Source: Schaalia meyeri
GTDB taxonomy: Bacteria > Actinomycetota > Actinomycetes > Actinomycetales > Actinomycetaceae
Direction: 5' to 3'
Length of the DNA stretch: 32,000 nucleotides
NCBI RefSeq assembly: GCF_900105015.1
Contig: NZ_FNLK01000008.1
Span: 120,001-152,000 of the forward strand
Shown: positions 10,205-31,522 of the stretch, piece after piece
Numbering within the stretch: the first letter of the stretch is position 1
How the letters are laid out: each line of letters begins with the position of its first letter
The notes under the pieces: generated by a model
Database searches by the model: none
The model's input: only the letters and a program-made list of their open reading frames with translations
Told to the model about the DNA's origin: nothing
Made by a program: the position numbers and the translations under genes

Positions 10205-11290
<1,086 letters not shown>

Positions 11291-17905: not shown

Positions 17906-19020
17906 CGCGCGCCTGCCAGGGATTCGTACAGGCGGGCGTGGGAGGCGGCCGAGGACTCCCACGTGAAGTCGCGGGCGTGCTCGCGTCCAGCCGCGCTCAG
18001 GCGATCGTGATCGGGGCCTGCGGCGGCTTGAAGCGCCTCGGCCAGGGCGTGGGGGTCGGTGGCAGGTGCCAGCAGTCCCGCGTCGGCCCCGGTAATCTCC
18101 GCCATGCAGGTGCCTTCGCTGGTGACGACGGGGGTCCCGTGTGCCATGGCTTCGAGGACGGGCAGGCCAAAACCCTCCCAGATGGAGGGGAAGGTAAAGA
18201 CGCGCGCTCCGGCGTAGGCGCACGCCAGGTCTTCGTCGTCCAAGCGTCCCAGGACGTGGACGCGGGAGGCGGGCAGGTCCGCCTCGGTGGGATCCTCCCC
18301 CCACCCCGCGGGTCCCACGAGGACCAGGTCCAGCTCCGTGGTGGGGGCCAGTGCGCGGTATGCCTGAATCAGGGTGGGCAGGTTCTTGCGGGGTTCGCGG
18401 GTCCCGACCCACAGGATGTACGGGCGGTTCAGGGTGTGGCGGGCGCGAAATGCCTCGACCTGCTGGTGGGTGACGGGCGTGTGCGTCAGGCCGTGAGGGA
18501 TGACGCTGATGAGGTCCTCATCGATTCCGGCTTCCACGCAGTCTGCGGCCGTCGCCTGGGAGGGGACGATGACGGCGTCGGCGTGCTTCTTCGTCGCCGC
18601 CAAGGCGCGACGAAAGTAGGCGGCCCCGTGGGCGGTGAAATGGCTCGCCTCGCGCAGGAAAGCGACATCGTGGACGGTGACAATCAGGGGTCGAGACGTT
18701 GGGGGAATCGCCCAGGTCGTCGCGTGAACCACGTCGGCTCCCCGGCCCGATCCCGCTCCCAGCACTCGATCCACGCCGGGGATCCCCAGCCGATCCCACG
18801 CGGCGTACAGCGCGCGGCGCGGCAGGGCGCAGCTGCGCACGGGGATGGACAGGCCAACCTGCTCCGGCCGCTCTGCTCCCCTCCCGTGGCGCGCAGCGAT
18901 ACCGATGGCGTTTACTCCCTGGGCGGCCAGGCGCGAGGCGACCTCCACGATGTAGCGCCCCGACCCGCCGGGCACGCTCTGCCACATCTGCTCCACAACC
19001 ATTCCGACGCGCACGCTCAT
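17902..19020 (-). CDS. GT4 (GT-B, Glycos_transf_1) glycosyltransferase
   Basis: 'VPGGSGRYIVEVASRL' is at the N-terminus and 'FPSIWEGFGLPVLEAMAHGTPVV' gives the E-x7-E motif. This is the first gene of the minus-strand operon. Confidence 0.8.
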   Translation of the reverse strand: MSVRVGMVVEQMWQSVPGGSGRYIVEVASRLAAQGVNAIGIAARHGRGAERPEQVGLSIPVRSCALPRRALYAAWDRLGIPGVDRVLGAGSGRGADVVHATTWAIPPTSRPLIVTVHDVAFLREASHFTAHGAAYFRRALAATKKHADAVIVPSQATAADCVEAGIDEDLISVIPHGLTHTPVTHQQVEAFRARHTLNRPYILWVGTREPRKNLPTLIQAYRALAPTTELDLVLVGPAGWGEDPTEADLPASRVHVLGRLDDEDLACAYAGARVFTFPSIWEGFGLPVLEAMAHGTPVVTSEGTCMAEITGADAGLLAPATDPHALAEALQAAAGPDHDRLSAAGREHARDFTWESSAASHARLYESLAGAR

Positions 19021-19115: not shown

Positions 19116-20261
19116 ATGCCTGTTTCTCTCTCCTCCACACCAATCCGCGTCCTGATGGACGCCACCGCGATTCCCGCGAACCTGGGGGGTGTGGGACGCT
19201 ACGTGGATGATCTGGTACCCGAACTGGAAAACCAGGGCGTGAAACTGACGATGGCCGTGCAGGAGCGCGACGCGGAACACTTCGCCAGGCGCTTGCCATC
19301 CGCTCGCATCATTCCCATTTCCCCGCGCTTCGAATCGCGCCCGACGCGCATGGCGTGGGAGCAGACGGGCCTCCCCTCCCTCGTTCGCAAGGTTCGCCCC
19401 GACGTCCTTCACTCCCCGCACTACACGTCGCCGCAGTTCCCGGGCGCGCCTGTCGTCATCACCCTGCACGACGCGACTTTCTTCTCTCACCCCCAGGCCC
19501 ACTCGCGCCTGAAGCAACGCTTCTTCACGTACGCCATCCGGCGGGCGATCCGCCGCGCCTCGGCGCTGGTGGTCCCATCTGAGGCAACGCGCGACGAGAC
19601 GATCAAGTACGCGGGCGGGGACGCCTCCCAGTTCTACGTCGCCTATCACGGGGTGGACCGGGCGATCTTCCACCCGGTGGATGACGCCGAGCGCGAGCGC
19701 GTGAAGGAATCCCTCGGGCTGGCGGGGCGAGACTACATCGGTTTCCTGGGCACGCTGGAGCCCCGTAAGAACGTCCCGAACCTGGTACGAGGATGGGTGA
19801 AGGCCGTGTCCGAGCGCCCGGATCCCCCCGCCCTGGTCCTGGCCGGCGGAAAGGGGTGGGACGAGGACATCGACCCGGCCCTGGCCTCGGTCCCCCATCA
19901 ACTGACGGTGCTGCGCCCCGGCTACCTGCCCCTGGAGGACCTGCCCGGTTTCCTGTCGGGTTGTCTCGTCCTGGCCTACCCGTCGATCGCGGAGGGCTTC
20001 GGGCTGCCCGTCCTGGAAGCCATGAGCTGTGGAGCCGCGACGCTGACGACTCGCCTGACCTCCCTGCCCGAGGTTGGCGGGGACGCCGTGGAGTACTGCG
20101 ACACGGACCCCGATTCCATCGCCCACGCGCTGGCCGCCCTGCTGGAGGCCCCGGCGCGGCGCGCCGAATTGAGTGAGGCCGCTATCCAGCGCGCGAGCGA
20201 GTTCACGTGGGAACGCGCTGCCCAAGTCCACGCACAGGCCTACCGCGCGGCCGCCGCCTGA
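19116..20261 (+). CDS. GT4 (GT-B) glycosyltransferase
   Basis: 'LGGVGRYVDDLVPEL' and 'YPSIAEGFGLPVLEAMSCGAATL' (E-x7-E) are present. ATG 19116 has GGGGA 5 nt upstream. The listed ORF start at 18699 lies inside the divergent gene and is rejected; ATG 19071 remains an alternative. Confidence 0.8.
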   Translation: MPVSLSSTPIRVLMDATAIPANLGGVGRYVDDLVPELENQGVKLTMAVQERDAEHFARRLPSARIIPISPRFESRPTRMAWEQTGLPSLVRKVRPDVLHSPHYTSPQFPGAPVVITLHDATFFSHPQAHSRLKQRFFTYAIRRAIRRASALVVPSEATRDETIKYAGGDASQFYVAYHGVDRAIFHPVDDAERERVKESLGLAGRDYIGFLGTLEPRKNVPNLVRGWVKAVSERPDPPALVLAGGKGWDEDIDPALASVPHQLTVLRPGYLPLEDLPGFLSGCLVLAYPSIAEGFGLPVLEAMSCGAATLTTRLTSLPEVGGDAVEYCDTDPDSIAHALAALLEAPARRAELSEAAIQRASEFTWERAAQVHAQAYRAAAA

Positions 20262-20300: not shown

Positions 20301-21854
20301 ATGGCCCCCGCCGATCTTCCCAGCAGTGACACCGAGGAAAAAACCACCATCCTCTCCCGCATCCGCTTTCGTCCAACGCGCCGCCAGTGGCGAATCCTCG
20401 CCGTCATCGCCCTCATCGCCTCCGTGTTCGGGACGGGCGTGGCGTGGGCCGTTTCCTCACCGATTGGCGCCTCACCGGACGACGACTATCACCTGGGGTC
20501 CATATGGTGCACTCCCCCGCTGTCCAAATCGGGATGCGCGACGGGATACACGGACAAGAACACGTACGGCCCTATCGTTCCCGAAACGATCGCATCAAAC
20601 CACGTTGCGTGCTACGCGTTTCACGGGCAGGATTCCGCCGCCTGCGTCAATAAGCTCTCCGACGAACGCTCGGTCGTGACCGACCGCTGGGATGACGGAA
20701 ACTACCCGTGGGGTTACTACCAGTTCCACCACCACTTCATCTCTCATAACACGCACCGCGCAGCCCTGGTCATGCGCGTCATCAATCTGAGCATCGCCCT
20801 GATCCTGCTCGGGAGCATCGGCGCACTCATGCCGCCTTTCCTGCGTCGCGGCTACGTTCTGGCGATGCTGGCCGCCTGGACTCCCATGGGGATCTACTTC
20901 ATCGCCTCGAACAATCCCTCGTCGTGGGCGTTCAGCGGCGTCCTTGCCTTCGCCGCGGGATTGTGGTCCGCCACCCACACCGACGGCTGGCGCCGGTGGG
21001 CTCTGATGGGCACGGCCGCGGTGGGCGCGCTCCTGGCGTGCACGTCACGCGCAGATTCGGCGTTCTTCCTTTTCGTCGTCTCCATGGCCCTGGTTTTCGC
21101 GGTTCGCTGGCGACGCAACCGTTGGCCCGAGGGGGTGCTCGCGGCTGTTTCGTCCGTCGTCGGCATTCTCGTCATGAATTCCACGAGCATGGCTTCCAAC
21201 AACCTGACGTCGACGAATGCCGCCAAGATGTCCTTCATTCAGGCGCTCGCGGCAAATCTGCATTCCCTCCCCCAGTTCTTTTCCGGCTTCTACGGGTATC
21301 GCTGGGGACCGGGATGGATGGACGTGTCCTACGACGGCTCCGTGTCGACGGTTGGCCTCCTTGTCAGCGGCGCCGTGATTATCGCCAGCGCGCGATGCTG
21401 GTCATGGCGCAAGGCGATGACCGCGCTGATGGTGGTGGGGGCGATGGCGGGGGTCCCCACGGCCCTGGGCATTCTCCAGAGGTTCAACAACGTAATTGAC
21501 TACCAGCCCCGCTACATGATGCCGCTGCTGGCTGTGTTCTTCTTCTTTATGCTCACGATGGATCGACGCGATCGCACTCTCACGCGCCCGCAGGCATCCA
21601 CGCTCGGGGTTCTGCTGGGCGGGATGCACTTCTACGCCCTGTTTGTGCTGCTGCTGCGCTACACGCACGGTTCCGCGGCGACTAACACTCTCAACCTGAG
21701 CAAGACGGCGGCGTGGTGGTGGAAAAACGCGCCGATCGGCCCGAACATGGTGTGTTTAATCGGCTCCGTTTCCTTTATCGCAGCCCTGGCTCTCTCTCTG
21801 CTTTTAACGCGCGAGGAGCCGCTGGGGCGGGGAAGCGCCGCGGCTGAGGCTTGA
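20301..21854 (+). CDS. DUF2142-like polytopic membrane protein (possible GT-C-like glycosyltransferase)
   Basis: A 517-aa ORF with more than 10 hydrophobic segments and an early periplasmic-loop motif, 'SPIGASPDDDYHLGSIWC'. That motif is as recalled for DUF2142 proteins in rhamnose-polysaccharide loci. GAGGAAAG lies upstream of the ATG. Confidence 0.6.
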   Translation: MAPADLPSSDTEEKTTILSRIRFRPTRRQWRILAVIALIASVFGTGVAWAVSSPIGASPDDDYHLGSIWCTPPLSKSGCATGYTDKNTYGPIVPETIASNHVACYAFHGQDSAACVNKLSDERSVVTDRWDDGNYPWGYYQFHHHFISHNTHRAALVMRVINLSIALILLGSIGALMPPFLRRGYVLAMLAAWTPMGIYFIASNNPSSWAFSGVLAFAAGLWSATHTDGWRRWALMGTAAVGALLACTSRADSAFFLFVVSMALVFAVRWRRNRWPEGVLAAVSSVVGILVMNSTSMASNNLTSTNAAKMSFIQALAANLHSLPQFFSGFYGYRWGPGWMDVSYDGSVSTVGLLVSGAVIIASARCWSWRKAMTALMVVGAMAGVPTALGILQRFNNVIDYQPRYMMPLLAVFFFFMLTMDRRDRTLTRPQASTLGVLLGGMHFYALFVLLLRYTHGSAATNTLNLSKTAAWWWKNAPIGPNMVCLIGSVSFIAALALSLLLTREEPLGRGSAAAEA

Positions 21855-21903: not shown

Positions 21904-21933
21904 GTTCACAAAATGAACAAAAGGTGCTAAGCT
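21904..21933 (+). promoter_or_regulatory. Candidate sigma-70-type promoter for the lic operon, with an overlapping inverted repeat
   Basis: TTCACA (21905-21910), a 17-nt spacer and TAAGCT (21928-21933) lie in an unusually AT-rich 125-nt gap. The inverted repeat GTTCA-N5-TGAAC (21904-21918) overlaps the -35. This is motif inspection only. Confidence 0.3.
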
Positions 21934-21971
21934 CGAACACGCAGTAATCAAACCGTCGAATGAACGAAAGG
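21912..21971 (+). repeat. Two copies of the 13-mer AATGAACNAAAGG in the licCA leader
   Basis: The copies are AATGAACAAAAGG at 21912-21924 and AATGAACGAAAGG at 21959-21971, a 12/13 match. The second copy runs into the Shine-Dalgarno sequence (AAAGGGGGAG). Confidence 0.5.
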
Positions 21972-21979
21972 GGGAGAGC

Positions 21980-23815
21980 ATGCCTCCCTCCACCACAGGC
22001 CCCCTCACCGAGCCCCAGTTCAACATCCTCTCCGCTCTGCTCGAGAGGGAGCGCCCGCTGACCCAGCGCACCCTGTCAGAGGTCACCGGCATGAGCCTGG
22101 GTCGCGTCAACACCGCGACCCGCGAATGCGAAGCCCTGGGATACATCAACGATCGCGCGATCACGCGGTCCGGCCGCGAGGCCCTGGACCCCTACCGCGT
22201 CACGGGCGCCGTCATCATGGCCGCCGGCACGTCCTCCCGCTTCGCCCCCATCAGCTACGAACGCCCCAAGGGCACGCTCAAGGTGCGCGGAGAAATACTG
22301 GTCGAACGCCAGATCCGTCAGCTCCACGAAGCCGGTATCACCAACATCACGATGGTGGTCGGCTACAAAAAGGAGTACTTCTTCTACCTCGCGGATAAGT
22401 ACGGGGTCACCATCGTCGTCAACCGCGAATACGCCACCCGCAACAACAATGGCTCCCTGTGGCTCGTGAAGGATCTCCTGGACAACACCTACGTGTGCTC
22501 CTCCGATGACTACTTCACGACCAATCCCTTTGAGCCCTACGTGTACAAGGCCTACTACTCGGCGAACTTCGTCAAGGGGCCCACGCCCGAGTGGTGCATC
22601 AAGGTGGGCCCTGCCGACAGGATTACGGGCGCGACCGTGGGCGGCGCTGACGCGTGGGTCATGCTCGGTCACGTCTACTTTGACCGCGCCTTCTCCGAGC
22701 AATTCCGTGCCGTCTTGGAGCGCGTGTACTCGCTCCCGGAGACCGCGTCGAAGCTGTGGGAGGCCATCTACCTGGACCACATCAAGGCATTCGACATGGT
22801 GATCCGCCGATACCCGGAAGGCGTCATCCACGAGTTTGATTCGGTCGATGAGCTGCGCAGCTTCGATCCCCTGTTCATGGAGAACGTCGACTCGGAGGTC
22901 TTCGATCACATCGCCGCTACGCTTCACTGCGCGAAGTCGGACATCCGCGACTTCTATCCGCTTAAGCAGGGCATCACGAACCTGTCGTGCCACTTCGCTG
23001 TGGGCGACGCCGAGTACGTGTATCGCCATCCCGGCATCGGCACCGAAAAGATCGTGAACCGCGGCGCCGAATTCGCGGCCCTGCGGCTGGCAGCAAAGCT
23101 GGGCATTGACGACACCTTCGTCGCGGGCGACCCGGGATCCGGCTGGAAGATCTCACACTTTGTGTGCGGCGTTCGCAACCTGGACGTCACCAGGGACGAG
23201 GAACTTCGCTCTGCCATGGAAATGGACCGCGCGCTGCACTCCTCGGGGCAGGTCCTTGATCGCTGCTTCGATTTCATCGCGGAGGCCGACCGCTACGAGG
23301 GGCTGCTCAAGCAGTTCGGACCGATTGACGTGCCCGGCTTTGAGGAGCTTCGCGATAAGGTGGCGCGCCTGAAGGCATTCGCCGACGCCGACGGCTTTGA
23401 GGTGGTGCCCTCCCACAACGATTTCTTCCCGCCCAACTTCCTGGTGGCGCCCGACGGCGCGATCAGTCTGATCGACTGGGAGTACGCGGGCATGTCGGAC
23501 GTGGCAGCAGACTTCGGCACGATGGTCGTGTGTACGCCCGAGATGACCCGCGAGCGCGCACGGGCCGCCCTGGAGTTTTACCTGGGCCGCGTACCGACCC
23601 AGCACGAGGAGCGCCACTTCTTCGCCTACGAGGTCTTTGCGGGGTGGTGCTGGTACGTGTGGGCGCTGGTCAAAGAGGCCGAGGGGGACGACGTGGGCGA
23701 GTGGCTCTACACCTACTACTCGCACGCGACGCGCACGCTTGATGCCCTGCTCGCCTCGTACGAGGCCTCCTCCAGCCCTCGCGACACCGCTCCTCGAGGG
23801 GGTGAATCGGCATGA
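21980..23815 (+). CDS. Triple fusion: winged-helix (MarR-like) domain + LicC-type CTP:phosphocholine cytidylyltransferase + LicA-type choline kinase
   Basis: - aa 1-75: 'EPQFNILSALLERERPLTQRTLSEVTGMSLGRVNTATRECEALGYI' looks like a wHTH.
- aa 76-300: these residues align by eye with S. pneumoniae LicC. Shared patterns include 'AVIMAAGTSSRF...PKG', 'VVGYKKEYFFYLADKYGVTIVVNREYATRNNNGSLWLV' and 'IHEFDSVDELRSFD'.
- aa 300-611: 'HNDFFPPNFLV' and 'LIDWEYAGMSD' are the Brenner and choline-kinase motifs. Confidence 0.85.
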   Translation: MPPSTTGPLTEPQFNILSALLERERPLTQRTLSEVTGMSLGRVNTATRECEALGYINDRAITRSGREALDPYRVTGAVIMAAGTSSRFAPISYERPKGTLKVRGEILVERQIRQLHEAGITNITMVVGYKKEYFFYLADKYGVTIVVNREYATRNNNGSLWLVKDLLDNTYVCSSDDYFTTNPFEPYVYKAYYSANFVKGPTPEWCIKVGPADRITGATVGGADAWVMLGHVYFDRAFSEQFRAVLERVYSLPETASKLWEAIYLDHIKAFDMVIRRYPEGVIHEFDSVDELRSFDPLFMENVDSEVFDHIAATLHCAKSDIRDFYPLKQGITNLSCHFAVGDAEYVYRHPGIGTEKIVNRGAEFAALRLAAKLGIDDTFVAGDPGSGWKISHFVCGVRNLDVTRDEELRSAMEMDRALHSSGQVLDRCFDFIAEADRYEGLLKQFGPIDVPGFEELRDKVARLKAFADADGFEVVPSHNDFFPPNFLVAPDGAISLIDWEYAGMSDVAADFGTMVVCTPEMTRERARAALEFYLGRVPTQHEERHFFAYEVFAGWCWYVWALVKEAEGDDVGEWLYTYYSHATRTLDALLASYEASSSPRDTAPRGGESA

Positions 23816-24786
23816 TTACACGCCACGGAGGTAAGCGCTTTGGCATCTTTTCGGGCGCCCTGTGGGGCCTGGATACGGTGGTTCTGGCGATCGCTCTGGC
23901 GATGACGCCCTTTGCCTCGTTCGGGCAGTCGGCGCTGGCCGGGGCGGTCCTGCACGACGTCGCGTGCGCCCTGATCCTGCTGGCGTACATGGCGATTCGC
24001 GGGCGCCTGACGGACACGGTTCGGGCGCTGCGCACCCGGCCGGGGCGCGCGGTGATTGCGGCGGCCCTGCTGGGAGGCCCATTCGGCATGAGCGGGTACC
24101 TGATTGCGATCGATAACATCGGACCGGGTCCAACCGCCATCATTTCGACGTTCTATCCTGCCCTGGGGACCCTGTTGGCCTTCGTCCTCCTCAAGGAACG
24201 CATGGCGCCGCGCCAGATCATGGCTCTGCTGGTGGCCCTGGCTGCGATCGTGGCGACCGGTTGGTCGGCGACCTCGGAGTCGGTCGAGGGCGGTAACGCC
24301 ATCCTGGGTGTCGCGGGCGCATTGGCGTGCGTCATCGGGTGGGGGTCCGAGGCCGTCATCCTCACGTGGGGCATGCGCGACGAGGCCGTGGATAACGAGG
24401 TGGCCCTGCAGATCCGCGAATCGACTTCTGCTCTGGTCTATCTCTTTGTCGTCGCGCCCATCACCGGTGTTTTCGGCTTCACGCTGCACGCCCTGGGTCA
24501 CCTGTCAGCGGGCGTGGCGCTGCTCGCCGGCCTGGCGGGGACGGCCTCGTACCTGTTCTATTACAAGGCCCTGTCGTTGATCGGCGCGTCGCGCGGCATG
24601 ACGCTGAATATCTCGTATTCGGCGTGGGCGGTCATCTTCGCTCTCGCGCTGCAGGGAACGGTGCCCACCGCGTTCCAGGTCCTGTGCTGCGTCGTCATCC
24701 TGGTGGGGACGATCCTGGCGGCGACCTCCTCGTGGGGTGAGCTGCTTCCCAAGCGCACGGCTACCGTCAGCGATGACCAGCCGTGA
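23812..24786 (+). CDS. DMT/EamA-type permease, LicB-like (putative choline transporter)
   Basis: A 324-aa ORF with about 10 hydrophobic segments, Gly/Ala-rich as in the drug/metabolite transporter fold. ATG 23812 overlaps the licCA stop (ATGA). Its position between licC/A and licD parallels known lic loci. Confidence 0.7.
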   Translation: MITRHGGKRFGIFSGALWGLDTVVLAIALAMTPFASFGQSALAGAVLHDVACALILLAYMAIRGRLTDTVRALRTRPGRAVIAAALLGGPFGMSGYLIAIDNIGPGPTAIISTFYPALGTLLAFVLLKERMAPRQIMALLVALAAIVATGWSATSESVEGGNAILGVAGALACVIGWGSEAVILTWGMRDEAVDNEVALQIRESTSALVYLFVVAPITGVFGFTLHALGHLSAGVALLAGLAGTASYLFYYKALSLIGASRGMTLNISYSAWAVIFALALQGTVPTAFQVLCCVVILVGTILAATSSWGELLPKRTATVSDDQP

Positions 24787-24843
24787 GACAATGGCTGGTG
24801 GGCGCGCGTGCGCCCACCAGCCACCCCACCCGGAGGACTTATG
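24756..24843 (+). repeat. Direct repeat copy A (licB 3' end, stop, hairpin, SD and licD1 ATG)
   Basis: 24756-24793 matches 25770-25807 at 37 of 38 nt. A hairpin region with indels follows, then the identical 12-mer GGAGGACTTATG. The offset between copies is 1014 nt. Confidence 0.9.
24795..24820 (+). repeat. Perfect GC-rich hairpin (11-bp stem, 4-nt loop) 9 nt after the licB stop
   Basis: CTGGTGGGCGC-gcgt-GCGCCCACCAG. No T-tract follows, so it is not a canonical intrinsic terminator. It may be an intercistronic RNA stability, processing or attenuation element. Confidence 0.6.
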
Positions 24844-25800
24844 ACAACACCCCGCAGTGACCTGCGTAAGCTCCACATGCTGCTGACCTTCATCCTGGCC
24901 GAGTTTGATCGGGTGTGCTCACAGATCGGCGTCACCTATGCGCTCTACGGCGGCAGCACGATCGGGGCGGTCCGCCACGGCGGTTTCATCCCGTGGGACG
25001 ACGACATCGACGTCTTCATGATTCGTCAGGACTACGAACGCTTCCTGCGTGAGGCCCCCGATCTCCTGGCCCAGGGGTTCCGCATCGACAATCAGCGGAC
25101 GGTGCCCCGCTACCATCTATTGTTTTCCAAGCTCGGCCTGGACGGGACCGTGTTTCTCTCTCAGGGGGAGGTTAACCCCGACTACACCCCTCCGATTTTC
25201 CTGGATATTTTCCCGCTGGACGCTGTTCCCAGCGATCAGCGTCGCTTCCGTGCGATGCGCCGCCGGACCTGGTGGTGGGGGCGCCTGCTGTTCCTGTCGG
25301 GCATTCCGACGCCGAAACTGCCGGACATGGCGCCGTGGAAGCGATCCCTGGTGCACGCGGTCACGCGAACGGCGAACGTGGCGTTGCGGGCCTGCCGCCT
25401 GTCCCCCGTCGCGCTGTATGAACGCTGGGAGAAGGCGGCCCGGTCGGCCGAAGACGAAGCGACGGACACCTACACGGACTTCACGATGCGCGACCCGCAG
25501 AACTGGATCGTTCGCCGCGACGAGTTGCTGCCGACGCGCCGCGTTCCTTTTGAGGCTATCGAGGCCCCGGTCCCCCGCGACGTGGAGGCGTTGCTGACGC
25601 GAGGCTACGGCGACTACATGCGGATTCCTGACCCTGCCGACCGCCTCACCCACCTGCCAGAAAAGATCCTCTTTGGCAGCTACGATCCCGACCGGGGAGG
25701 CGTCCCGGACCTCCTGGCACCCCGCGACCCGGCGGATTCGTCCCCCGGGGACGCGAACACGACCACGCACACGGCTACCGTCAGCGACGACCAGCCGTGA
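24841..25800 (+). CDS. LicD family phosphotransferase, paralogue 1
   Basis: 'YALYGGSTIGAVRHGGFIPWDDDIDVFM' is the LicD/LICD signature. ATG 24841 is preceded by GGAGGA. The C-terminal tail TATVSDDQP is identical to that of the upstream permease. Confidence 0.85.
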   Translation: MTTPRSDLRKLHMLLTFILAEFDRVCSQIGVTYALYGGSTIGAVRHGGFIPWDDDIDVFMIRQDYERFLREAPDLLAQGFRIDNQRTVPRYHLLFSKLGLDGTVFLSQGEVNPDYTPPIFLDIFPLDAVPSDQRRFRAMRRRTWWWGRLLFLSGIPTPKLPDMAPWKRSLVHAVTRTANVALRACRLSPVALYERWEKAARSAEDEATDTYTDFTMRDPQNWIVRRDELLPTRRVPFEAIEAPVPRDVEALLTRGYGDYMRIPDPADRLTHLPEKILFGSYDPDRGGVPDLLAPRDPADSSPGDANTTTHTATVSDDQP

Positions 25801-25856
25801 GACAATGACGGGTGGGCGCGCACCCACCAGCTATCATCCACAGTGGAGGACTTATG
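25770..25856 (+). repeat. Direct repeat copy B (licD1 3' end, stop, degenerate hairpin, SD and licD2 ATG)
   Basis: See copy A. Both copies encode T-A-T-V-S-D-D-Q-P-stop. Confidence 0.9.
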
Positions 25857-26711
25857 GCGACACCCCAGAGCGACCTGGCCAAAGTGCAGAAGCTTCTGAC
25901 GTTGATCCTGGCCGAACTCGATCGTGTCTGTCAGCTCATCGGGGTTTCCTACGCGATCTACGGAGGCACCGCTATCGGCGCGATTCGCCACGGCGGTTTC
26001 ATCCCGTGGGACGACGACATCGACGTGATGATGACGCGCACCGACTACGAGCGCTTTCTCGTTCAGGCGCCCCAGCACATGGATGAGCGCTTCCGCTTGG
26101 ACAACACCCGCACGCGCGACGACTTTCCGTTCATGTTCACGAAGATGGTGATACCCGGGACCCTGCTCGTCCCAGAAGCGGCCCGTGATTCGACGTATCG
26201 GATGCCGTTTTTCCTCGACATTCTCCCCCTGGATGAAATTCCCTCCGACGAGGAGGCTTTCCGTGCGATGTCTCGCGCGTCCTGGTGGTGGGGGCGCCTG
26301 CTGTTCCTGCAGGGAACTGCTCGCCCCTACCTCATCAATCCGCCCGCATGGAAAAAAGCCCTGATTTATTCGGCGACGACTGTGGCGCATCTGGGGCTCA
26401 AGGCGCTTCGCGCAACCCCGCGCAGCCTGCAGGCCCGCTGGGAACGTGCCGTTCGTCGTTACGAGGGGGCGGGGACGGGAGTGTACGCCGACTTTACGAT
26501 GCGTGACCCGCAGCATTGGATCGTGCGTGAGGAGGAGTTTTTCCCCACCCGCCGGGTTCCCTTCGAGGATATTACCGTGATGATCCAGCATAGCTACGAC
26601 GCCCTGCTACGCCGGGGGTACGGTGACTACATGCAGTTGCCACCGCCGGACAAGCGCTACAACCACGCCCCCGCCGTCGTTGATTTCGGCCCGTACGAGT
26701 CCATCCTGTAA
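25854..26711 (+). CDS. LicD family phosphotransferase, paralogue 2
   Basis: It carries 'YAIYGGTAIGAIRHGGFIPWDDDIDVMM'. The GGAGGACTTATG context at the start is the same as for paralogue 1. Confidence 0.85.
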   Translation: MATPQSDLAKVQKLLTLILAELDRVCQLIGVSYAIYGGTAIGAIRHGGFIPWDDDIDVMMTRTDYERFLVQAPQHMDERFRLDNTRTRDDFPFMFTKMVIPGTLLVPEAARDSTYRMPFFLDILPLDEIPSDEEAFRAMSRASWWWGRLLFLQGTARPYLINPPAWKKALIYSATTVAHLGLKALRATPRSLQARWERAVRRYEGAGTGVYADFTMRDPQHWIVREEEFFPTRRVPFEDITVMIQHSYDALLRRGYGDYMQLPPPDKRYNHAPAVVDFGPYESIL

Positions 26712-26738
26712 TCCGCCCCCCCTGTTGATCGGACACAC

Positions 26739-27638
26739 ATGAGCGCAGCAGATCCCGCAACCCTGGCAGCCATTCAGCGCATCACCAAGCGGTGCCTGGC
26801 TGAAATCGACCGCGTCTGCACTCTCCTGGACATTCGCTACGTCGCCTACGGAGGGACCGCGATCGGAGCGGTCCGGCACGGGGGGTTCATCCCGTGGGAC
26901 GACGACGGGGACGTGTGCATGCCGCGCGCGGACTATGAGCGCTTCATTGCCGAGGCCCCCGCCGTTCTCGGCGAGGAATTTTTCGTTGCTTCCCCGTCAT
27001 CTCACTCCGACTATCCAATTAGCTTCGGTGTGCTCGGCCTCAAGGGGTCGGAGTTCATATCAAAGGTCGCCAAGGATAGGCCGTTCCGCATGCCCATCGG
27101 CGTGGATCTGTTCGTGCTCGATGAGATCGCCGACTCCCCTGCCCGCTTCCGTTCGCAGATGCGGGGAACATGGCTGTGGGCGAGGCTCATGTTTCTTCGC
27201 TCGATTCCGTGCCCCCCAACGGGACTGCCCACGCCGGCTCGACAGCTCGCGGCGGTTGCGATGGCCAGCGCCCACTGGGGCATGCGGTTGCTGCGCGTGA
27301 CCGAGGCATCCCTGTACCGCCGGTGGCTGAAGGCGGCCCTCAAGGGGCGGGCAGAACCCCAGAAGGCGGCCGATGGGACGACCCTCTTCGGCGACTTTTC
27401 GACGCGCGATCCGCGCCGCTGGAGCGCCTCGGAAGCGGAGCTTTTCCCCGCGCGCACCGTTCCCTTTGAGGACATGACGATCCGCATTCCCGCCGCGTAC
27501 GACGTCATCTTGACTCGGGGATACGGCGACTACATGCGCATCCCCGACCCGCAGGAGCGCGTCACCCACGAGCCTTTCCGCATCGTGTTTGGTCCTCACG
27601 ATCCGGGTCCCGCAGCTCCGGGGGGTGAGGGCGTGTGA
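26739..27638 (+). CDS. LicD family phosphotransferase, paralogue 3
   Basis: It carries 'YVAYGGTAIGAVRHGGFIPWDDDGDVCM' and 'RGYGDYMRIPDP'. It is more diverged than paralogues 1 and 2. Confidence 0.85.
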   Translation: MSAADPATLAAIQRITKRCLAEIDRVCTLLDIRYVAYGGTAIGAVRHGGFIPWDDDGDVCMPRADYERFIAEAPAVLGEEFFVASPSSHSDYPISFGVLGLKGSEFISKVAKDRPFRMPIGVDLFVLDEIADSPARFRSQMRGTWLWARLMFLRSIPCPPTGLPTPARQLAAVAMASAHWGMRLLRVTEASLYRRWLKAALKGRAEPQKAADGTTLFGDFSTRDPRRWSASEAELFPARTVPFEDMTIRIPAAYDVILTRGYGDYMRIPDPQERVTHEPFRIVFGPHDPGPAAPGGEGV

Positions 27639-28990
27639 CAGGCAAAGAGACCACAGTATTTCCCTCTGGGGAGTCGGGAAGCGACGGGGAGGTCCATGCC
27701 GACGTTGCCGAGGACGCGCGCAAGTCGCGCGGGCAGCTAGGCAGGGACTACCTGTGGAACACGGCGGCCTCCCTGATGTCGAGCCTCGCGGTCATCATCA
27801 TGGGCGTGGCGATCGTGCGTTCGGGGACCACCGAGTCGTTCGCCCGAGCCCAGTACGGACTCTTCACCCTGGCGCTGGCCATCGGCCAGCAGTACCAAAC
27901 TGTCGGCATGTACGAGGTGCGCACATTCCACGTCACCGACGTGCGCAGGCGCTTCGACTTCGGCACCTACCTGTCGACGAGGATCCTCACCTGCTTCGTT
28001 ATGGTTGCCCTCATCGGCTACCACGCCTGGGACGTGTCGCTTAAGGACCCTTATCCGGCATTGACGGTCATTGGTTCCATAGCGTTCTTGCGCATTTTCG
28101 ACGCCTTCGAGGACGTGTACTACTCCGAGTTCCAGCGCTCGGGACGCCTTGACATCGCGGGCAAAGCCTGCTTCGCCCGCATCTTCACTACGACGATGCT
28201 GTGGTCGGTCCTCTACTGGGTGACCCAGGATCTCCTCGTATCTACACTCATCACGTTCGCAGTGACCTGCGTCATCCTCTTAGTTGTCTACGGTGCGCCG
28301 GCGCGCGGCATGTTCTCGCTGCGCCCCTCGATCGCGCTGGGCGCCGTCGGTCGGATCCTGTGGGAGTGTTTGCCCCTGTTCGTCGCCGCATTCCTCAACC
28401 AGTACTTGGCGAATGCTCCGCGTTTCGCGATCCACTCGACTCTCGGCGACGAGGAGCTCGGCGTTTTCGCCATCGTCTTTATGCCGGCCATCGCAATCAA
28501 CATGCTCTCCCTCTTCGTCTTTCGCCCACTTCTGACTCGCATGGCGCTGCACTGGGCGGAGGGAGACCGCAGCACATTCATGGCGATCGTCCGGCGCGGC
28601 CTCGCAACCACCGGCCTCGCCTTTTGTCTCGTCGCCGCCGTGACCTACGTGGTCGGCGCTCCCCTGCTCTCCCTCGTTTTCGGAACCGATGTGTCCGGCT
28701 ATGTCCGCGAGCTCATGGTCCTGGTCTTGGCCGGCGCCCTCAATGCTGCCGGCGTTATTCTCTACTATGCTCTGGCCACGATGAGGCGCCTGAGGGCAGT
28801 CCTGGCCGCGTACGCCGTTGCGGCCGCGTACGCCTACGTGACCACGCCGCTGCTAACGGAATCGCTAGGTATGCTCGGCGCTTCGGTTGCCTACGCCACA
28901 ATCATGACTCTGCTCGCCCTGCTCTTCGGCCTCATCATGGTAGTTTCGCTGCGGCAGCGTCGTGAGGAAACGGAGCCCACTGGTGATTGA
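27635..28990 (+). CDS. MOP-superfamily polysaccharide flippase (Wzx/TacF-like)
   Basis: A 451-aa ORF with about 12 hydrophobic segments. The GTG start overlaps the licD3 stop (GTGTGA). A flippase adjacent to licD genes mirrors tacF-licD1-licD2 in S. pneumoniae. The family is assigned from topology and context only. Confidence 0.65.
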   Translation: MTGKETTVFPSGESGSDGEVHADVAEDARKSRGQLGRDYLWNTAASLMSSLAVIIMGVAIVRSGTTESFARAQYGLFTLALAIGQQYQTVGMYEVRTFHVTDVRRRFDFGTYLSTRILTCFVMVALIGYHAWDVSLKDPYPALTVIGSIAFLRIFDAFEDVYYSEFQRSGRLDIAGKACFARIFTTTMLWSVLYWVTQDLLVSTLITFAVTCVILLVVYGAPARGMFSLRPSIALGAVGRILWECLPLFVAAFLNQYLANAPRFAIHSTLGDEELGVFAIVFMPAIAINMLSLFVFRPLLTRMALHWAEGDRSTFMAIVRRGLATTGLAFCLVAAVTYVVGAPLLSLVFGTDVSGYVRELMVLVLAGALNAAGVILYYALATMRRLRAVLAAYAVAAAYAYVTTPLLTESLGMLGASVAYATIMTLLALLFGLIMVVSLRQRREETEPTGD

Positions 28991-29176
28991 TTGTACTCGC
29001 GCGGCGCCGCACGCTTCGCTCCGCGCTCGGCCTGCCTATCCCGGGCGCTGCGGTAGCGGGAGTGCGATGCGTTTGTGGGGCCGGGCCTCTTTCGCAGTGA
29101 TGCCTATCGCGGTGATACGAGGCCGCCCGCACCCGTACAGCCCGGATCGTTGCCAGCCACTGACAAGGAGCAGTGA

Positions 29177-30316
29177 ATGCGTATTGCGTTCGTCGTGAAC
29201 AGCTATCCGCCCCGGCTGGGCGGATTGGAGTCCCACATTTACCACCTGTCGGTATCCCTGGCACGGTTGGGGCACCAGGTGTACGTGCTGACCATTTCCG
29301 ATGAGCCGGGTCATCGCACCCAGGAGCGGGTCGACATCCGCACCAATCGGCGTTATTTCCCCATCGCGGACATCATCAGCTTCCCCGCCGTGGGAACGAC
29401 TCGCCAGATCGCGCGCTTCCTGAAGCGAGAGAGCATCGACGCCGTCAGCGTGCACACGCGGTTCTTCCCCATGAGCTTCGTCGGGGTCCGCGCCGCACGC
29501 AAGGCGGGTATCCCGGTCATCCACACGGAGCACGGGTCGGGGTTTGTCGCCTCCTCGTCGCCCGTCATCAGATCGGCGTCGCGTGCGGTTGACGTGACGA
29601 TGGGACGCTACGTGCTGCGCCACGCGGACCGCGTGCTGGGCGTGTCCGAGCAGGCCGCCGCTTTCGCCTCACGCCTGGGCGGGGTGAACACTCAGGTGTT
29701 CTACAACGCGATCACGCCGCCCGCGCGCCGCTCAGTGCCGATCAATGATCGCCACCGTCACCTGGTCTTCGTTGGCCGCATGGTCCCGGGAAAGGGCTGG
29801 GACACGTTTATCGAGGCCGTGGCGCGGCTGCGCGAGGCGGGTGCGCAGGTGAGCGGCGAACTGCTGGGCACGGGCGCCGACCTTGAGGCCGCACGCGCGC
29901 TCATTGCGCGGCGCGGCCTCACCGAGCAGGTCTGCGCGCCGGGTCGCGTGAGCGCCGACGAGGTCCGTTCCCGTCTGGCCGGTGCGACCCTCGTGAATCC
30001 CACGGTGTTGTCTGAGGGCTTCCAAACGACGCTGCTGGAGGCCCTCGCTGAACGCGGGCGCGTCGTCACCTTCACCGTCCCGGGGGCGCGGGTCCTGGCC
30101 GAGCAGGGAAATCCGGTGATCATCACCGCCGAGAGGACGGTCGATTCGCTGGTCGCCACCCTGCGCGATTTCCTGGAGGCCCCGCCGCCCCTGGGGGAGC
30201 CCGACCTGATCGACGCCTGGACGTGGCCGGTGCGGGCACGCGAGTACGCGGCCATCGCCTCGTCGCTGATCGCGGGTTCTGGCCCCGATGTCCCGCACCC
30301 CCTGGCCCCACACTGA
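29177..30316 (+). CDS. GT4 (GT-B) glycosyltransferase
   Basis: 'MRIAFVVNSYPPRLGGLESHIYHL' and 'SEGFQTTLLEALAERGRVV' (E-x7-E) are present. AAGGAG lies 7 nt upstream of the ATG. Confidence 0.8.
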   Translation: MRIAFVVNSYPPRLGGLESHIYHLSVSLARLGHQVYVLTISDEPGHRTQERVDIRTNRRYFPIADIISFPAVGTTRQIARFLKRESIDAVSVHTRFFPMSFVGVRAARKAGIPVIHTEHGSGFVASSSPVIRSASRAVDVTMGRYVLRHADRVLGVSEQAAAFASRLGGVNTQVFYNAITPPARRSVPINDRHRHLVFVGRMVPGKGWDTFIEAVARLREAGAQVSGELLGTGADLEAARALIARRGLTEQVCAPGRVSADEVRSRLAGATLVNPTVLSEGFQTTLLEALAERGRVVTFTVPGARVLAEQGNPVIITAERTVDSLVATLRDFLEAPPPLGEPDLIDAWTWPVRAREYAAIASSLIAGSGPDVPHPLAPH

Positions 30317-30499
30317 GGCTCTATCCTCGCGCCCTCCTTGACGAAAAGGGGCGCCCGTACCGGCCAGCGGCAGCCCGCCTGCGAGGCGCGGTGTTACGCC
30401 GCCTCACCCTTCACCTCATCCGGTGAAACAGGCACGTGCCCACGGCGCGCGGTTACACGAGCCGGGGGCGTGGCCGCGCCAATGAATATTCCCCGCGCA

Positions 30500-31345
30500 T
30501 CACCCGGCGTAGGGCTGGTCGCCCACCCATTCCGCGGAGCGGACGTGCGCGGGCGGGCGCTGGTCCTCAGGGGGGATGCGCTGCCAGTCGCCGTAGTAGT
30601 CGCGCAGGATTTTCTCGGCCTGTGCGGGGATGGCGAAGCGCCGTCCCTCGAAGCTCGCCGTGCGCGTCGGGAAGAGTTCGTCGGGCCGGATGGTGTTCCG
30701 GCTCATGACGTCGTCGACCAGCAGCACCCAGCGTTCGTTATCCTCCTCGCTTACCTGCGAGCGGTGACAGCCCTGGGCCGTCTCGTCTTGCCTGCGTGAA
30801 ATGGCATAGAGATTGGCAAAACGCGTGATCGGGTACAGCAGGTACTTGATGGCGCGACGCGCAGCGGACGTGGCGTATCGCGGGTTCGATGCCGCGATGT
30901 ACTTCCACCACACCAGCCGGTGTTCCTTCCGCGCCGCGCGGTGAACGTGCGGATCGGTCACGTCGACGCGCTCGAGCGGGAAAATGTCGACCCACAGCCC
31001 CAGGGTGCCGGCCGATTCGTCGAGGAATGACTCAACGGCCCGAGTGCGCGTATCGACCAGCTTGCAGTAGGAGTTGATTGACGTGCGATCCCGGTAGCTC
31101 GCCAGCGCATAGTGCTCGCCGAGCGCCCCTTCCTGCCACAGGCGATAGAGCTTCTCGTAGTCGTCGCGGGGCATGTAGACGTCGATGTCGTCGTCCCACG
31201 GGATGAAACCGCGATGCCGCAGCGCCCCGATGAGCGTTCCGTACGCCAGCGCATAGGACAGTTGATGGTCGCGGCAGACGCGATCGAGTTCGGAGAGAAT
31301 ATCCAGTTCAATCGCCTTCACCTGGCGCGCCTCAAGTTGGGTCAT
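30500..31345 (-). CDS. LicD family phosphotransferase, paralogue 4
   Basis: It carries 'YALAYGTLIGALRHRGFIPWDDDIDVYM'. ATG 31345 gives an N-terminus of the same length as the other three LicDs. ATG 31357 is possible, and the 31468 start of the listed ORF is unlikely. Confidence 0.8.
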   Translation of the reverse strand: MTQLEARQVKAIELDILSELDRVCRDHQLSYALAYGTLIGALRHRGFIPWDDDIDVYMPRDDYEKLYRLWQEGALGEHYALASYRDRTSINSYCKLVDTRTRAVESFLDESAGTLGLWVDIFPLERVDVTDPHVHRAARKEHRLVWWKYIAASNPRYATSAARRAIKYLLYPITRFANLYAISRRQDETAQGCHRSQVSEEDNERWVLLVDDVMSRNTIRPDELFPTRTASFEGRRFAIPAQAEKILRDYYGDWQRIPPEDQRPPAHVRSAEWVGDQPYAG

Positions 31346-31522
31346 CGGCTCTCTCATCGTGTCGAATTGAGGGGTTGTGAACTGGTGTCCAGGGTAGTAC
31401 ACCGCCGCGGGCGTGCGCACTTCCTTCCCTCTCCTGGGCCCTTCGGACATAGGGGCCTGGCCGCGCACGGCGACCGTAACGGGGTTTCGTCACCCTTAGA
31501 TCGGGCCACACAAATCCCCATT

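Follow-up and report, generated by a model that had tools for sequence, protein, structure and literature searches.

How could an actinobacterium place phosphocholine on a rhamnose-type wall polysaccharide? The question is raised by a 32 kb stretch of Schaalia meyeri DNA (the window), in which a lic block spanning positions 21980-31468 adjoins a DUF2142 gene, Wzm/Wzt and RmlB genes and genes for GT2, GT4 and WsaF-like enzymes. We consider it probable that the locus builds a rhamnose wall polysaccharide by two pathways, with a Wzx-flipped side unit decorated with phosphocholine, that its choline genes are autoregulated through a winged helix-turn-helix (wHTH) domain, and that it is of recombinant origin. 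All eight genes of the choline module in the initial annotation (LicCA, LicB, four LicDs, flippase and GT4) were confirmed in position:

20301..21854, plus strand: DUF2142 polytopic membrane protein with a predicted GT-C-like fold (PF09913, E 3e-39; model)
21904..21938, unstranded: operator-like inverted repeat GTTCA-N25-CGAAC, the sole match in the window
21980..23815, plus: LicCA, a wHTH-LicC-LicA trifunctional protein of 611 aa (Pfam and PDB matches)
22004-22147, plus: wHTH domain of LicCA (aa 9-56)
22205-22876, plus: CTP:phosphocholine cytidylyltransferase domain of LicCA (aa 76-299)
22958-23743, plus: choline kinase domain of LicCA (aa 327-588)
23812..24786, plus: LicB choline/H+ symporter of the DMT family (EamA; 7b0k)
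24808..25800, plus: LicD1, soluble LicD-family phosphotransferase (PF04991, E 3e-35)
25812..26711, plus: LicD2 (PF04991, E 7e-35)
26739..27638, plus: LicD3 (PF04991, E 1e-32)
27635..28990, plus: Wzx-type (MOP/PST) flippase (PF01943 in relatives, model, Foldseek)
29177..30316, plus: GT4 glycosyltransferase (Pfam)
30500..31468, minus: LicD4, convergent (PF04991, E 3e-43)

The first gene had been described as a LicC-LicA fusion. Both domains are supported by Pfam (NTP_transf_3/NTP_transferase at aa 77-192, APH/Choline_kinase at aa 327-547) and by their top solved structures, S. pneumoniae LicC (1jyk, E 9e-35) and S. pneumoniae LicA (4r77, E 5.5e-26), so that kinase and cytidylyltransferase score best to pneumococcal choline enzymes and not to non-choline families. 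The domain description was incomplete in one respect, as it had missed an N-terminal winged helix matched by HTH_24 (31.1 bits) and MarR_2 (28.9 bits), both above the Pfam cut-off. The LicCA fusion is present in more than 570 species genomes, and the order licCA-licB-licD(n)-wzx is kept from Actinomyces to Atopobium and Propioniciclava.

Upstream of licCA, a 35 bp inverted repeat (consensus GTTCA-N25-YGAAC) overlaps the putative promoter, with a -35 element TTCACA at 21905-21910 and an extended -10 element TGCTAAGCT at 21925-21933. The window holds one match against 0.09 expected by chance, and the half-sites are invariant across 8 related loci. In a set of 81 loci from two actinobacterial classes, which includes many close relatives and therefore gives counts that are not independent, 77 have the repeat in the 260 bp preceding licCA; there are 108 matches in 20.7 kb upstream of licCA versus 19 in 1.51 Mb elsewhere, an enrichment of about 415-fold. 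It is also found upstream of a second licCA paralogue (L051) and of a licCA-adjacent transporter gene in four loci (L041, L042, L046 and L049). Together, the repeat and the wHTH suggest NadR/BirA-like autoregulation of licCA, in which the fused wHTH would bind the repeat over its own promoter and LicCA would thus be an enzyme-repressor. There is a serious competing possibility, although we lean somewhat against it, that another regulator binds the repeat or that it is a plain conserved promoter, with the fused wHTH serving a role other than DNA binding. The half-sites fall on the -35 and start-site regions, so conservation of the repeat could partly be promoter conservation; their spacing of 30 bp is atypical for MarR-type dimers, and a sequence search found no PDB relative of the wHTH. 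Against this, the repeat spacing is exact in the GC-rich intergenic regions of Actinomyces and the AT-rich ones of Atopobium and Collinsella, which are otherwise unalignable, and Collinsella carries two phased copies. Moreover, no genes other than licCA and licB are universally co-conserved with it, and in Propioniciclava (L038) truncation of the wHTH coincides with reduction of the repeat to a single half-site.

The three tandem LicDs and the fourth nearby, as first annotated, all match PF04991 (E 1e-32 to 3e-43) and retain the DDDxD motif in the alignment. The likely true starts of LicD1 and LicD2 are ATG 24841 and ATG 25854, each preceded by GGAGGA, and that of LicD4 is uncertain (31468, 31420 or 31345). 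No transmembrane segments were predicted in any of the four, which are best explained as cytoplasmic enzymes. LicD-family enzymes can also transfer ribitol-phosphate or glycerol-phosphate, and the donor is not fixed by sequence. It is accordingly possible, but on the whole doubtful, that only some of the four transfer phosphocholine and at least one transfers a different phospho-alcohol (candidates being ribitol-P, glycerol-P, phosphoethanolamine and AEP), with a donor whose synthesis is encoded in another part of the genome. The family is broad, the only solved-structure match is a weak one to fukutin-related protein, the only NCBIfam match is the choline transferase Mf1, far below cut-off, and the paralogues share only 34-53% mutual identity. 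Enterococcus faecalis has LicD with no mention of licA or licC and no report of wall phosphocholine, and AEP is also produced by Coriobacteriia that carry the same lic cassette (PMC6697681). Conversely, the locus specifies no activated donor besides CDP-choline, other activated-alcohol synthases being absent from the window, and the LicDs of syntenic cassettes all travel with licCA-licB. We infer that choline is the LicD donor.

The number of LicDs would follow from recombination between two cassette types. Orthologues of LicD1 (77-79%) occur in L003/L006-type loci, and those of LicD4 (78%) and of the GT4 at 29177..30316 (81%, directly after licD1) in L003, whereas those of LicD2 (83-86%) and LicD3 (87-89%) occur in L001-type loci. 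Judged from its sequence, the locus is a recombinant in which a licD2-licD3-wzx cassette of about 3.4 kb (25763-29165) appears to have been inserted into a licD1-GT4-licD4 type locus, leaving a 59-nt scar (family D5):

24749..24807, plus: direct repeat copy 1 (licB 3' end and intergenic), 92% identical to copy 2
25763..25821, plus: direct repeat copy 2, the left junction of the inserted cassette

The C-terminal 9 aa of LicD1 (TATVSDDQP) are a copy of the LicB tail.

The neighbouring genes named in the initial annotation (Wzm/Wzt, RmlB, GT2/GT4 and WsaF-like) were borne out by profile matches:

9226..10383, minus: GT2 glycosyltransferase
10205..11242, minus: RmlB dTDP-glucose 4,6-dehydratase (TIGR01181)
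11372..12688, minus: Wzt ATPase with a C-terminal Wzt_C carbohydrate-binding domain
12547..13485, minus: Wzm ABC-2 permease
13518..14486, minus: GT2 glycosyltransferase
14476..15417, minus: NAD-dependent sugar epimerase/reductase, under every equivalog cut-off
15395..16699, minus: WsaF-like glycosyltransferase (rhamnosyltransferase family)
16748..17905, minus: GT2 glycosyltransferase (the longest open reading frame, to 18412, over-extends)
17902..19020, minus: GT4 glycosyltransferase
19116..20261, plus: GT4 glycosyltransferase, 89% conserved in relatives

RmlB exceeds the TIGR01181 equivalog cut-off (454.5 bits versus 365.1) and is the only one of the four rml genes in the window, RmlA/C/D being absent. 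The window is best explained as containing the main wall-polysaccharide locus, organized on a two-pathway plan. A 6-deoxyhexose (rhamnose-type) backbone would be built by the GT2, GT4 and WsaF-like enzymes and exported by Wzm/Wzt. Choline would be imported by LicB, phosphorylated by the LicA domain and converted to CDP-choline by the LicC domain. The adjacent GT4s would assemble a lipid-linked oligosaccharide, to which up to four soluble LicDs would attach phosphocholine at the cytoplasmic face. The Wzx-type flippase would then move the decorated unit outward, and the DUF2142 protein may join or polymerise it onto the backbone; both acceptor and step order are proposed. In the L003-type locus LicDs occur with no Wzx nearby, and it may therefore be the ABC-exported chain that some LicDs modify.

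The flippase itself has no Pfam match, yet 33 of its 69 aligned relatives match PF01943 (Polysacc_synt), and its AlphaFold model (pLDDT 91, pTM 0.88) is closest by Foldseek to the E. coli lipid III flippase WzxE (9g9n, TM 0.74/0.81, E 4e-8), in keeping with its first designation as Wzx/TacF-like; the GT4 placed after it was upheld by Pfam. The first 4 nt of the flippase gene are also the last 4 of licD3, and licD-wzx adjacency is kept from Actinomyces to Atopobium and Propioniciclava. The DUF2142 protein, whose gene immediately precedes licCA in relatives, may be the extracytoplasmic enzyme that transfers or polymerises the flipped unit: the top Foldseek matches of its model (pLDDT 84) are all GT-C proteins (EmbB, ArnT, STT3, AftA/B and Pmt4), with TM only 0.3-0.4, and an invariant SPDxDxH follows TM1. 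Genes for a priming transferase, an LCP ligase and RmlA/C/D are all missing from the window, so attachment of the flipped unit to the chain exported by Wzm/Wzt is proposed by analogy. It is unlikely that the two systems are merely neighbours and that the phosphocholine acceptor is a distinct polymer or glycolipid that depends on Wzx (teichoic-acid-like, lipoglycan or capsule-like). The S. pneumoniae licD and tacF products do act on teichoic acid precursors (PMC4364537), no enzyme in the window is proven to join the two products, and the GT-C assignment of DUF2142 is supported only moderately. However, in Schaalia and Actinomyces the DUF2142 gene, GT4s, lic cassette and Wzm/Wzt/WsaF genes are conserved together as a single block, and genes for polymers of ribitol- or glycerol-phosphate (TarI/J/K/L, TagD/F) are absent from the window.

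The identity of the substrate can be addressed at the residue level. LicB, whose gene shares its first 4 nt with the end of licCA, has the S. pneumoniae LicB 7b0k as its sole PDB match (E 2.7e-32, full length). The earlier LicB-like assignment holds, with the EamA match and all 10 listed residues kept: W17, Y109, W167, Y233, Y236, N252, Y255, H43, E170 and R191 (PMC8890701), comprising 7/7 choline-contact and 3/3 proton-coupling positions of the pneumococcal protein. The LicA domain retains the Brenner motif (SHNDFFPPN), catalytic Asp176, Thr29, Asn181, Asp194 and Glu196 (PMC4364537); the aromatic box Y197/W251/W254/Y268 reads Y/W/W/W, and Glu213 aligns with no acidic residue. The LicC domain keeps W136, W191, D107, E216, D218 and the CTP loop, with a mixed pocket in which Y190 is Leu, D192 is Glu and D105 is Ser (PMC6697681). 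These substitutions, together with the promiscuity described for pneumococcal LicB (PMC8890701), could indicate a related amine (ethanolamine or N-methylated ethanolamines) in place of choline, which we regard as very improbable given full conservation of the LicB choline box and LicA aromatic box, and given that Actinomyces gerencseriae, with an orthologous cassette in strain DSM 6844 (L012; LicCA 68%), is reported TEPC-15 positive (PMC10434233).

Hardly credible is diversion of the LicCA product into phosphatidylcholine, as in the CDP-choline lipid pathway served by LicCA of Treponema denticola, which has the same LicC-LicA fusion order, because the window has no CDP-alcohol phosphatidyltransferase and the four LicDs, Wzx and GTs are encoded with LicCA in one co-directional run of genes, some of them overlapping.

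A phosphocholine-decorated rhamnose-type wall polysaccharide, the reading first proposed, is thus favoured by every sequence-level test suggested with it. The teichoic-acid-independent character of the route, also proposed there, is putative, as the Wzx-flipped unit may belong to a separate polymer. Its accompanying statement that the acceptor had no genetic or structural description stands for structure, which is still undescribed, and is outdated for genetics: a 2024 preprint on Schaalia odontolytica XH001 annotates Rha-CWPS loci with 'a system for phosphocholine decoration' next to them (PMC11623550), a 2023 survey credits A. gerencseriae and A. viscosus with Lic-1 enzymes (PMC10434233), and a 2019 paper mentions that Atopobium rimae and Olsenella uli have lic genes (PMC6697681). 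Novelty is therefore modest, the choline gene set having been noted in a sister species, S. odontolytica, with the same locus layout. What goes beyond the initial annotation is the LicCA winged helix, the inverted repeat upstream of licCA and the recombinant origin of the locus; no earlier description seems to exist of the regulator domain fused to LicCA or of its conserved DNA site. Among known systems, the Glu at D192 of the LicC domain is as in the AEP-specific PntC, the Wzx-type flippase is the analogue of pneumococcal TacF, and the DUF2142 protein is comparable to WpsJ/WpsI, the proposed WpsI and WpsJ of lactococcal and S. thermophilus Rha-CWPS being DUF2142 proteins.

The window is GC-rich (0.60-0.73) and therefore contains many long spurious open reading frames. 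Genes were picked by third-position GC together with family matches, which gave the following set (GT2, GT4 and GT-C are glycosyltransferase classes, wHTH is a winged helix, and LicD1-LicD4 are numbered in window order).

11372-12688 (-), Wzt ATPase: ABC_tran plus C-terminal Wzt_C carbohydrate-binding domain
14476-15417 (-), SDR epimerase/reductase, adjoining the WsaF-like GT
21980-23815 (+), LicCA, 611 aa: wHTH, nucleotidyltransferase and APH/choline kinase (Pfam)
23812-24786 (+), LicB: EamA/DMT permease
24808-25800 (+), LicD1: LicD family, first of three tandem ORFs
25812-26711 (+), LicD2: LicD family, second of three tandem ORFs
26739-27638 (+), LicD3: LicD family, third of three tandem ORFs
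27635-28990 (+), Wzx-type flippase, from its relatives' PF01943 matches and a structure model
29177-30316 (+), GT4, from a family match
30500-31468 (-), LicD4: LicD family, convergent
Upstream of the lic block: DUF2142 membrane protein, two GT4s, GT2s, WsaF-like GT, the SDR epimerase, Wzm, Wzt, RmlB

This inventory confirms the gene content described in the initial annotation, from the LicC-LicA fusion through the permease, the three tandem LicDs with a fourth nearby and the flippase to the GT4 downstream of it. The adjoining Wzm/Wzt, RmlB, GT2/GT4 and WsaF-like genes likewise have family matches, and RmlB scores above the TIGR01181 equivalog cut-off. The accompanying interpretation, a complete choline module inside a rhamnose-type wall-polysaccharide locus, is supported at the sequence level. 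Longest-ORF calls over-extend in this DNA at 16748-18412 (-), 18699-20261 (+) and 9226-10383 (-). For the first, a GT2, the most likely start is 17905, where an ATGA overlaps the stop of the upstream GT4, and for the second, a GT4, it is 19116; the third, a GT2, shares 178 nt with RmlB when taken in its longest form. The left part of the window (548-9225) encodes SpoIIM-like, RDD, DUF3499, zincin-like, DUF5719 and TIGR03089-family proteins and a 1044-aa GT2 with ~12 TM segments. In mycobacteria, DUF3499 and zincin-like genes lie close to wbbL/rmlD within a block conserved among actinobacteria, which suggests that the locus is the core wall-polysaccharide region and not an island.

The substrate of the pathway can be assessed from the transporter and the two enzyme domains. 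LicB aligns end to end with pneumococcal LicB (7b0k, E 2.7e-32), its only PDB match. All seven choline-contact residues (W17, Y109, W167, Y233, Y236, N252, Y255) and the three conserved charged proton-coupling residues (H43, E170, R191) are identical to those of the pneumococcal protein, where W17/Y109/W167/Y233/Y255 form the aromatic box, Y236/N252 are hydroxyl ligands and H43/E170/R191 have the proton role (PMC8890701). Within LicCA, Pfam places the nucleotidyltransferase domain at aa 77-192 and the APH/choline-kinase domain at aa 327-547. In PDB searches the LicA domain (aa 331-588) finds S. pneumoniae LicA best (4r77, E 5.5e-26), and it passes PF01633 (choline kinase) at 33.3 bits against a cut-off of 29. 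With residue roles taken from PMC4364537, it keeps the Brenner motif SHNDFFPPN with the equivalent of catalytic Asp176, has DWEY, and conserves Thr29, Asn181, Asp194 and Glu196; the aromatic box Y197/W251/W254/Y268 reads Y/W/W/W, and no acidic residue stands opposite Glu213 in the alignment. The LicC domain (aa 76-299) has S. pneumoniae LicC as its best PDB match (1jyk, E 9e-35) and retains W136, W191, the CTP loop and the metal ligands D107, E216 and D218 (roles from PMC6697681). Both domains thus score best to pneumococcal choline enzymes and not to non-choline families.

A substrate other than choline is unlikely. In its favor are the LicC pocket substitutions (Y190 to Leu, D192 to Glu, D105 to Ser), of which the Glu is the residue at the equivalent position in the AEP-specific PntC, and which keep the LicC sequence from fixing the selectivity of this domain; against it, PntC (6pd1) matches the LicC domain at only E 1.8e-8, an AEP route would do without a kinase, and no other activated-alcohol synthase is encoded within the window. 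Transporter and kinase together argue strongly for choline as the probable substrate. It is also unlikely that the LicCA product feeds phosphatidylcholine synthesis, the use to which the T. denticola LicCA, a LicC-LicA fusion in the same order, is reportedly put according to Kent et al. in 2004, who are said to have found that it makes CDP-choline for that lipid; in the window the fusion heads a block with LicD genes and a flippase. Conversion of choline to CDP-choline followed by LicD-mediated decoration of a glycan is, judging from these domains and residues, probably the function of the block.

The four LicDs all match the LicD family (PF04991) at E 1e-32 to 3e-43 and share an invariant DDDxD, and hydrophobic segments are lacking in all of them. 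Against the NCBIfam model Mf1 they score 54-82 bits with a cut-off of 225. Their sequences tell neither the donor nor the acceptor, and a PDB search with LicD4 gave only a marginal match to fukutin-related protein (E 0.04), of no use for donor specificity. Since these proteins are soluble, their site of action would be the cytoplasmic side of the membrane and their substrate a lipid-linked glycan made by the adjacent GTs. An E. faecalis LicD preprint was considered as precedent for phosphocholine on rhamnopolysaccharide and set aside, as phosphocholine is deduced there only from the gene name.

The flippase itself has no match in Pfam, NCBIfam or, by sequence and profile, the PDB. An exhaustive search gave 4304 relatives, and PF01943 (Polysacc_synt) is found in 33 of 69 aligned ones. 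The protein has ~12 hydrophobic segments, and its AlphaFold model (pLDDT 91, pTM 0.88) most closely resembles WzxE, the lipid III flippase of E. coli (TM 0.74/0.81, E 4e-8), with MATE and MurJ proteins next; the model and the relatives' PF01943 matches therefore identify a Wzx-type flippase, as previously annotated. On a possible specificity for choline-loaded units like that of TacF, only the conserved licD-wzx adjacency and the overlap of the two genes have a bearing. The 4-nt overlaps of wzx with licD3 and of licB with licCA point to one translationally coupled unit.

The surrounding genes provide the polysaccharide context. Export is represented by Wzm (ABC2_membrane) and Wzt (ABC_tran and Wzt_C). 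In O-antigen systems, Wzt_C recognizes a cap at the non-reducing end and thereby links the end of chain growth with export. LicD-added phosphocholine might serve as such a cap in the loci of one cassette type (L003), which lack Wzx, although this is speculative. The SDR protein falls below every NCBIfam equivalog cut-off (best GalE, 120 bits against 262), and its product may be a 6-deoxyhexose other than rhamnose; a rhamnose-fucose epimerase is mentioned in the S. odontolytica preprint (PMC11623550). RmlA, RmlC, RmlD, a priming transferase (TagO/WecA or WpsA/B) and an LCP ligase are absent from the 32 kb window; in S. odontolytica tagO is located at another locus, and rgpB, rgpF, rmlC-D and tagO were not deletable (PMC11623550).

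The DUF2142 gene lies just upstream of licCA. Its model (pLDDT 84) retrieves GT-C enzymes in all top Foldseek ranks (EmbB, EmbA, ArnT, STT3, AglB, AftA/B, Pmt4), at low TM of 0.3-0.4 and a best E of 4.8e-4, and in its relatives the first TM helix is followed by an invariant SPDxDxH motif. DUF2142 proteins of lactococci and S. thermophilus are the proposed WpsI/WpsJ, which polymerize a Wzx-flipped side chain or attach it to ABC-exported rhamnan (PMC9746298, PMC12599335). The searches give the family, fold and residue assignments directly; which donor the LicDs use, what the acceptor is and how the unit is joined, we infer. LicDs would decorate the lipid-linked glycan, the Wzx-type flippase would deliver the phosphocholine-bearing side unit outward, and the DUF2142 protein, by analogy with WpsI/WpsJ, would carry out a GT-C-like step joining or polymerizing the flipped unit. 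A bipartite rhamnose-type wall polysaccharide with a Wzx-dependent side unit bearing phosphocholine is the best-supported reading, because of the soluble LicDs, the Wzx overlap, the Wzm/Wzt exporter and the position of DUF2142 beside licCA. That the acceptor is specifically the Wzx/GT-C-delivered side unit of the rhamnose-type polymer we consider slightly favored.

At its N-terminus LicCA carries a domain (aa 9-56) that matches HTH_24 and MarR_2, both over Pfam cut-offs. This wHTH region (aa 1-75, 21980-22204) had been overlooked in the initial annotation; it is kept in LicCA homologues of Actinomycetes and Coriobacteriia, and a 76-residue wHTH query gave no PDB match by sequence search. Upstream of licCA, GTTCA and CGAACA blocks are invariant in an alignment of eight close relatives, and in more distant loci the corresponding position holds a clean palindrome, TGTTCA-N24-TGAACA. 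The 35-bp inverted repeat, GTTCA-N25-YGAAC (canonical TGTTCA-N24-TGAACA), occurs in both classes. When 81 loci were searched for GTTCA-N24-26-YGAAC within 260 bp upstream of licCA, 77 contained the repeat, many of these loci being close relatives; in two others a copy with one mismatch is present, and another locus is truncated by the contig end. Matches number 108 in 20.7 kb of upstream sequence and 19 in 1.51 Mb elsewhere, a 415-fold difference in density with which an independent pattern count agrees.

The window has a single copy, at 21904-21938, where chance would give 0.09, and this copy coincides in part with a plausible -35 (TTCACA) and extended -10 (TGCTAAGCT). This promoter (21905-21933) is our reading of the conserved alignment blocks; a sigma-70 consensus scan of the sequence found no promoter, and terminator matches were at chance level. 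Collinsella loci contain two copies phased 40 bp apart. Elsewhere a copy at 6987-7021 of locus L051 precedes a second wHTH-licCA paralogue of 49% identity. In four Olsenella/Tractidigestivibacter-type loci (L041, L042, L046, L049) a second copy, at ~11860-11900, stands before the gene that immediately follows licCA, which encodes an ABC substrate-binding protein (SBP_bac_6) with a Tat signal. In Propioniciclava (L038) the wHTH is truncated and only a half-site is present. Rfam and tRNA scans of the window gave no match, and the repeat is therefore not a known RNA element; a tandem-repeat search found no simple-sequence tract suited to H. influenzae-style phase variation.

Binding of the repeat by the fused wHTH, by which the operon would be autoregulated as in NadR or BirA systems, is a tentative proposal that we place a little below an even chance; the half-sites of the predicted operator overlap promoter elements and their 30-bp spacing is unusual, which is a caveat. 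At the lic promoter the phased TGTTCA-N24-TGAACA sites would be occupied by the wHTH, perhaps in a higher-order oligomer, and choline, phosphocholine, CTP or CDP-choline in the kinase or cytidylyltransferase sites would set the degree of repression. In this way wHTH-LicC-LicA could be a trifunctional enzyme-repressor in which occupancy by a choline-pathway ligand controls the lic promoter, a possibility to which we give just under half our confidence. In host-associated Actinomycetota (Actinomyces, Schaalia, Atopobium, Olsenella, Collinsella, Eggerthellaceae), phosphocholine display would then be on only while the host supplies choline.

The four LicDs have a composite origin. Comparison by blastn showed that 21925-25727 is collinear with licCA-licB-licD1 of the L003 cassette type, 25776-28939 with the licB tail-licD2-licD3-wzx of the other type (L001), and 29166-31412 with L003 again (GT4, licD4). 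The junction is marked by a 59-nt direct repeat, 92% identical (24749-24807 and 25763-25821), in which the licB 3' end and the intergenic region are copied to the end of licD1; LicD1 consequently ends in the nine residues of the LicB C-terminal tail (TATVSDDQP). As read from these alignments, the window is an L003-type cassette with an inserted L001-type licD2-licD3-wzx segment (25763-29165), and since both cassette types are collinear with it, LicD content would vary by cassette exchange between lineages.

Distribution among relatives was also determined. LicCA has 100% matches only in short metagenome contigs (one of 5.9 kb); the next-closest proteins, at 82-84%, come from genomes of uncultured Actinomyces (MAGs), Actinomyces bouchesdurhonensis and an isolate that bears the label Xylanimonas cellulosilytica 352_XCEL. 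Relatives of the LicC-LicA fusion are encoded in at least 574 species-representative genomes, with Actinomyces, Schaalia, Atopobium, Olsenella, Collinsella, Slackia, Adlercreutzia and Propioniciclava among them. Lineages from Actinomyces to Atopobium and Propioniciclava have the gene order licCA-licB-licD(n)-wzx, and Schaalia-type loci share the wider layout (WsaF, GT2, GT4, GT4, DUF2142, wHTH-LicCA, LicB, LicD, LicD, Wzx, GT4).

Phosphocholine displayed by bacteria is a ligand of CRP, of the PAF receptor and of natural anti-PC antibodies, which are cross-reactive with oxidized LDL. TEPC-15 reactivity of oral Actinomyces goes back decades, and we know of no carrier molecule. The locus and its close copies, in S. 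odontolytica and in hundreds of genomes of Actinomycetota, gut Collinsella among them, provide a candidate carrier, the Wzx-flipped side unit of a rhamnose-type wall polysaccharide, and a gene set to delete. Variation in LicD copy number by cassette exchange suggests strain-level epitope variation, which is relevant to attachment of phage and Saccharibacteria (TM7x), as both target this wall polysaccharide. A directly testable model of choline-responsive control follows from the regulator domain fused to LicCA and the conserved putative operator; if true, the enzyme-repressor would be an undescribed and widely conserved regulatory logic for a host-mimicry epitope.

Phosphocholine decoration is not a new idea for the Actinomyces/Schaalia group, because lic genes have already been noted (PMC11623550, PMC10434233, PMC6697681). 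Lic-1 enzymes were found in TEPC-15-positive A. gerencseriae and A. viscosus, with no ChoP glycoconjugate reported (PMC10434233, 2023), and lic genes in Atopobium and Olsenella (PMC6697681, 2019). The TEPC-15 reactivity of the two Actinomyces species is indirect evidence for phosphocholine on a surface glycoconjugate. The earlier remark that no genetic description was known thus does not hold for the genes; the carrier polymer is chemically undescribed. The literature searched contained no primary paper on TEPC-15 and Actinomyces and no description of HTH-LicCA regulation; the wHTH/operator and the cassette mosaic appear unreported there.

NadR combines an HTH with NMN adenylyltransferase and ribosylnicotinamide kinase, and BirA an HTH with biotin ligase. 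LicCA resembles these proteins in that a DNA-binding domain is fused to the nucleotidyltransferase and kinase of the pathway that it may control, with a palindromic site over its own promoter; it differs in having no homology to them and half-sites 30 bp apart, and its DNA binding and ligand control are only predicted. To our knowledge, the T. denticola LicCA has no wHTH. As in L. lactis and S. thermophilus loci for rhamnose-rich cell-wall polysaccharide (Rha-CWPS), where RgpC/D export rhamnan by an ABC route, the side chain is Wzx-flipped and WpsJ/WpsI are DUF2142 GT-C proteins, the window unites an ABC transporter, Wzx, DUF2142 and GT2/GT4 genes; in contrast, its host is actinobacterial and a WpsA/WpsB-type priming pair was not found in the window. 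The terms "LicD" and "phosphocholine" are absent from PMC12599335.

The closest described locus is that of the sister lineage Schaalia odontolytica XH001 (bioRxiv 2024.11.25.624915 / PMC11623550), which has the same gene order and a Schaalia odontolytica/Pauljensenia flippase 75% identical to that of the window. Its Rha-CWPS loci were annotated with "a system for phosphocholine decoration" by analogy, without chemistry, lic mutants or mention of a wHTH or operator (PMC11623550); by comparison, recombination has given the window two additional LicDs and another terminal GT4. Functionally, the nearest system is lic1/lic2 of S. pneumoniae, which has the same four activities with a MOP flippase beside the licD genes and provides the best or only solved-structure matches for LicB, LicA and LicC, with substrate contacts conserved in LicB and LicA. 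Unlike the pneumococcal genes, those of the window encode LicC and LicA as a fusion with an N-terminal wHTH, four LicDs instead of two, and a flippase with no detectable Pfam match; they lie in a Wzm/Wzt rhamnose-type locus with a DUF2142 GT-C-like protein, and the tarI/tarJ genes are missing, whereas the pneumococcal locus serves ribitol-phosphate teichoic acid. LicB, LicA, the LicDs at family level and Wzx fit the view that the system of the window probably works like the pneumococcal lic1/lic2 pathway.
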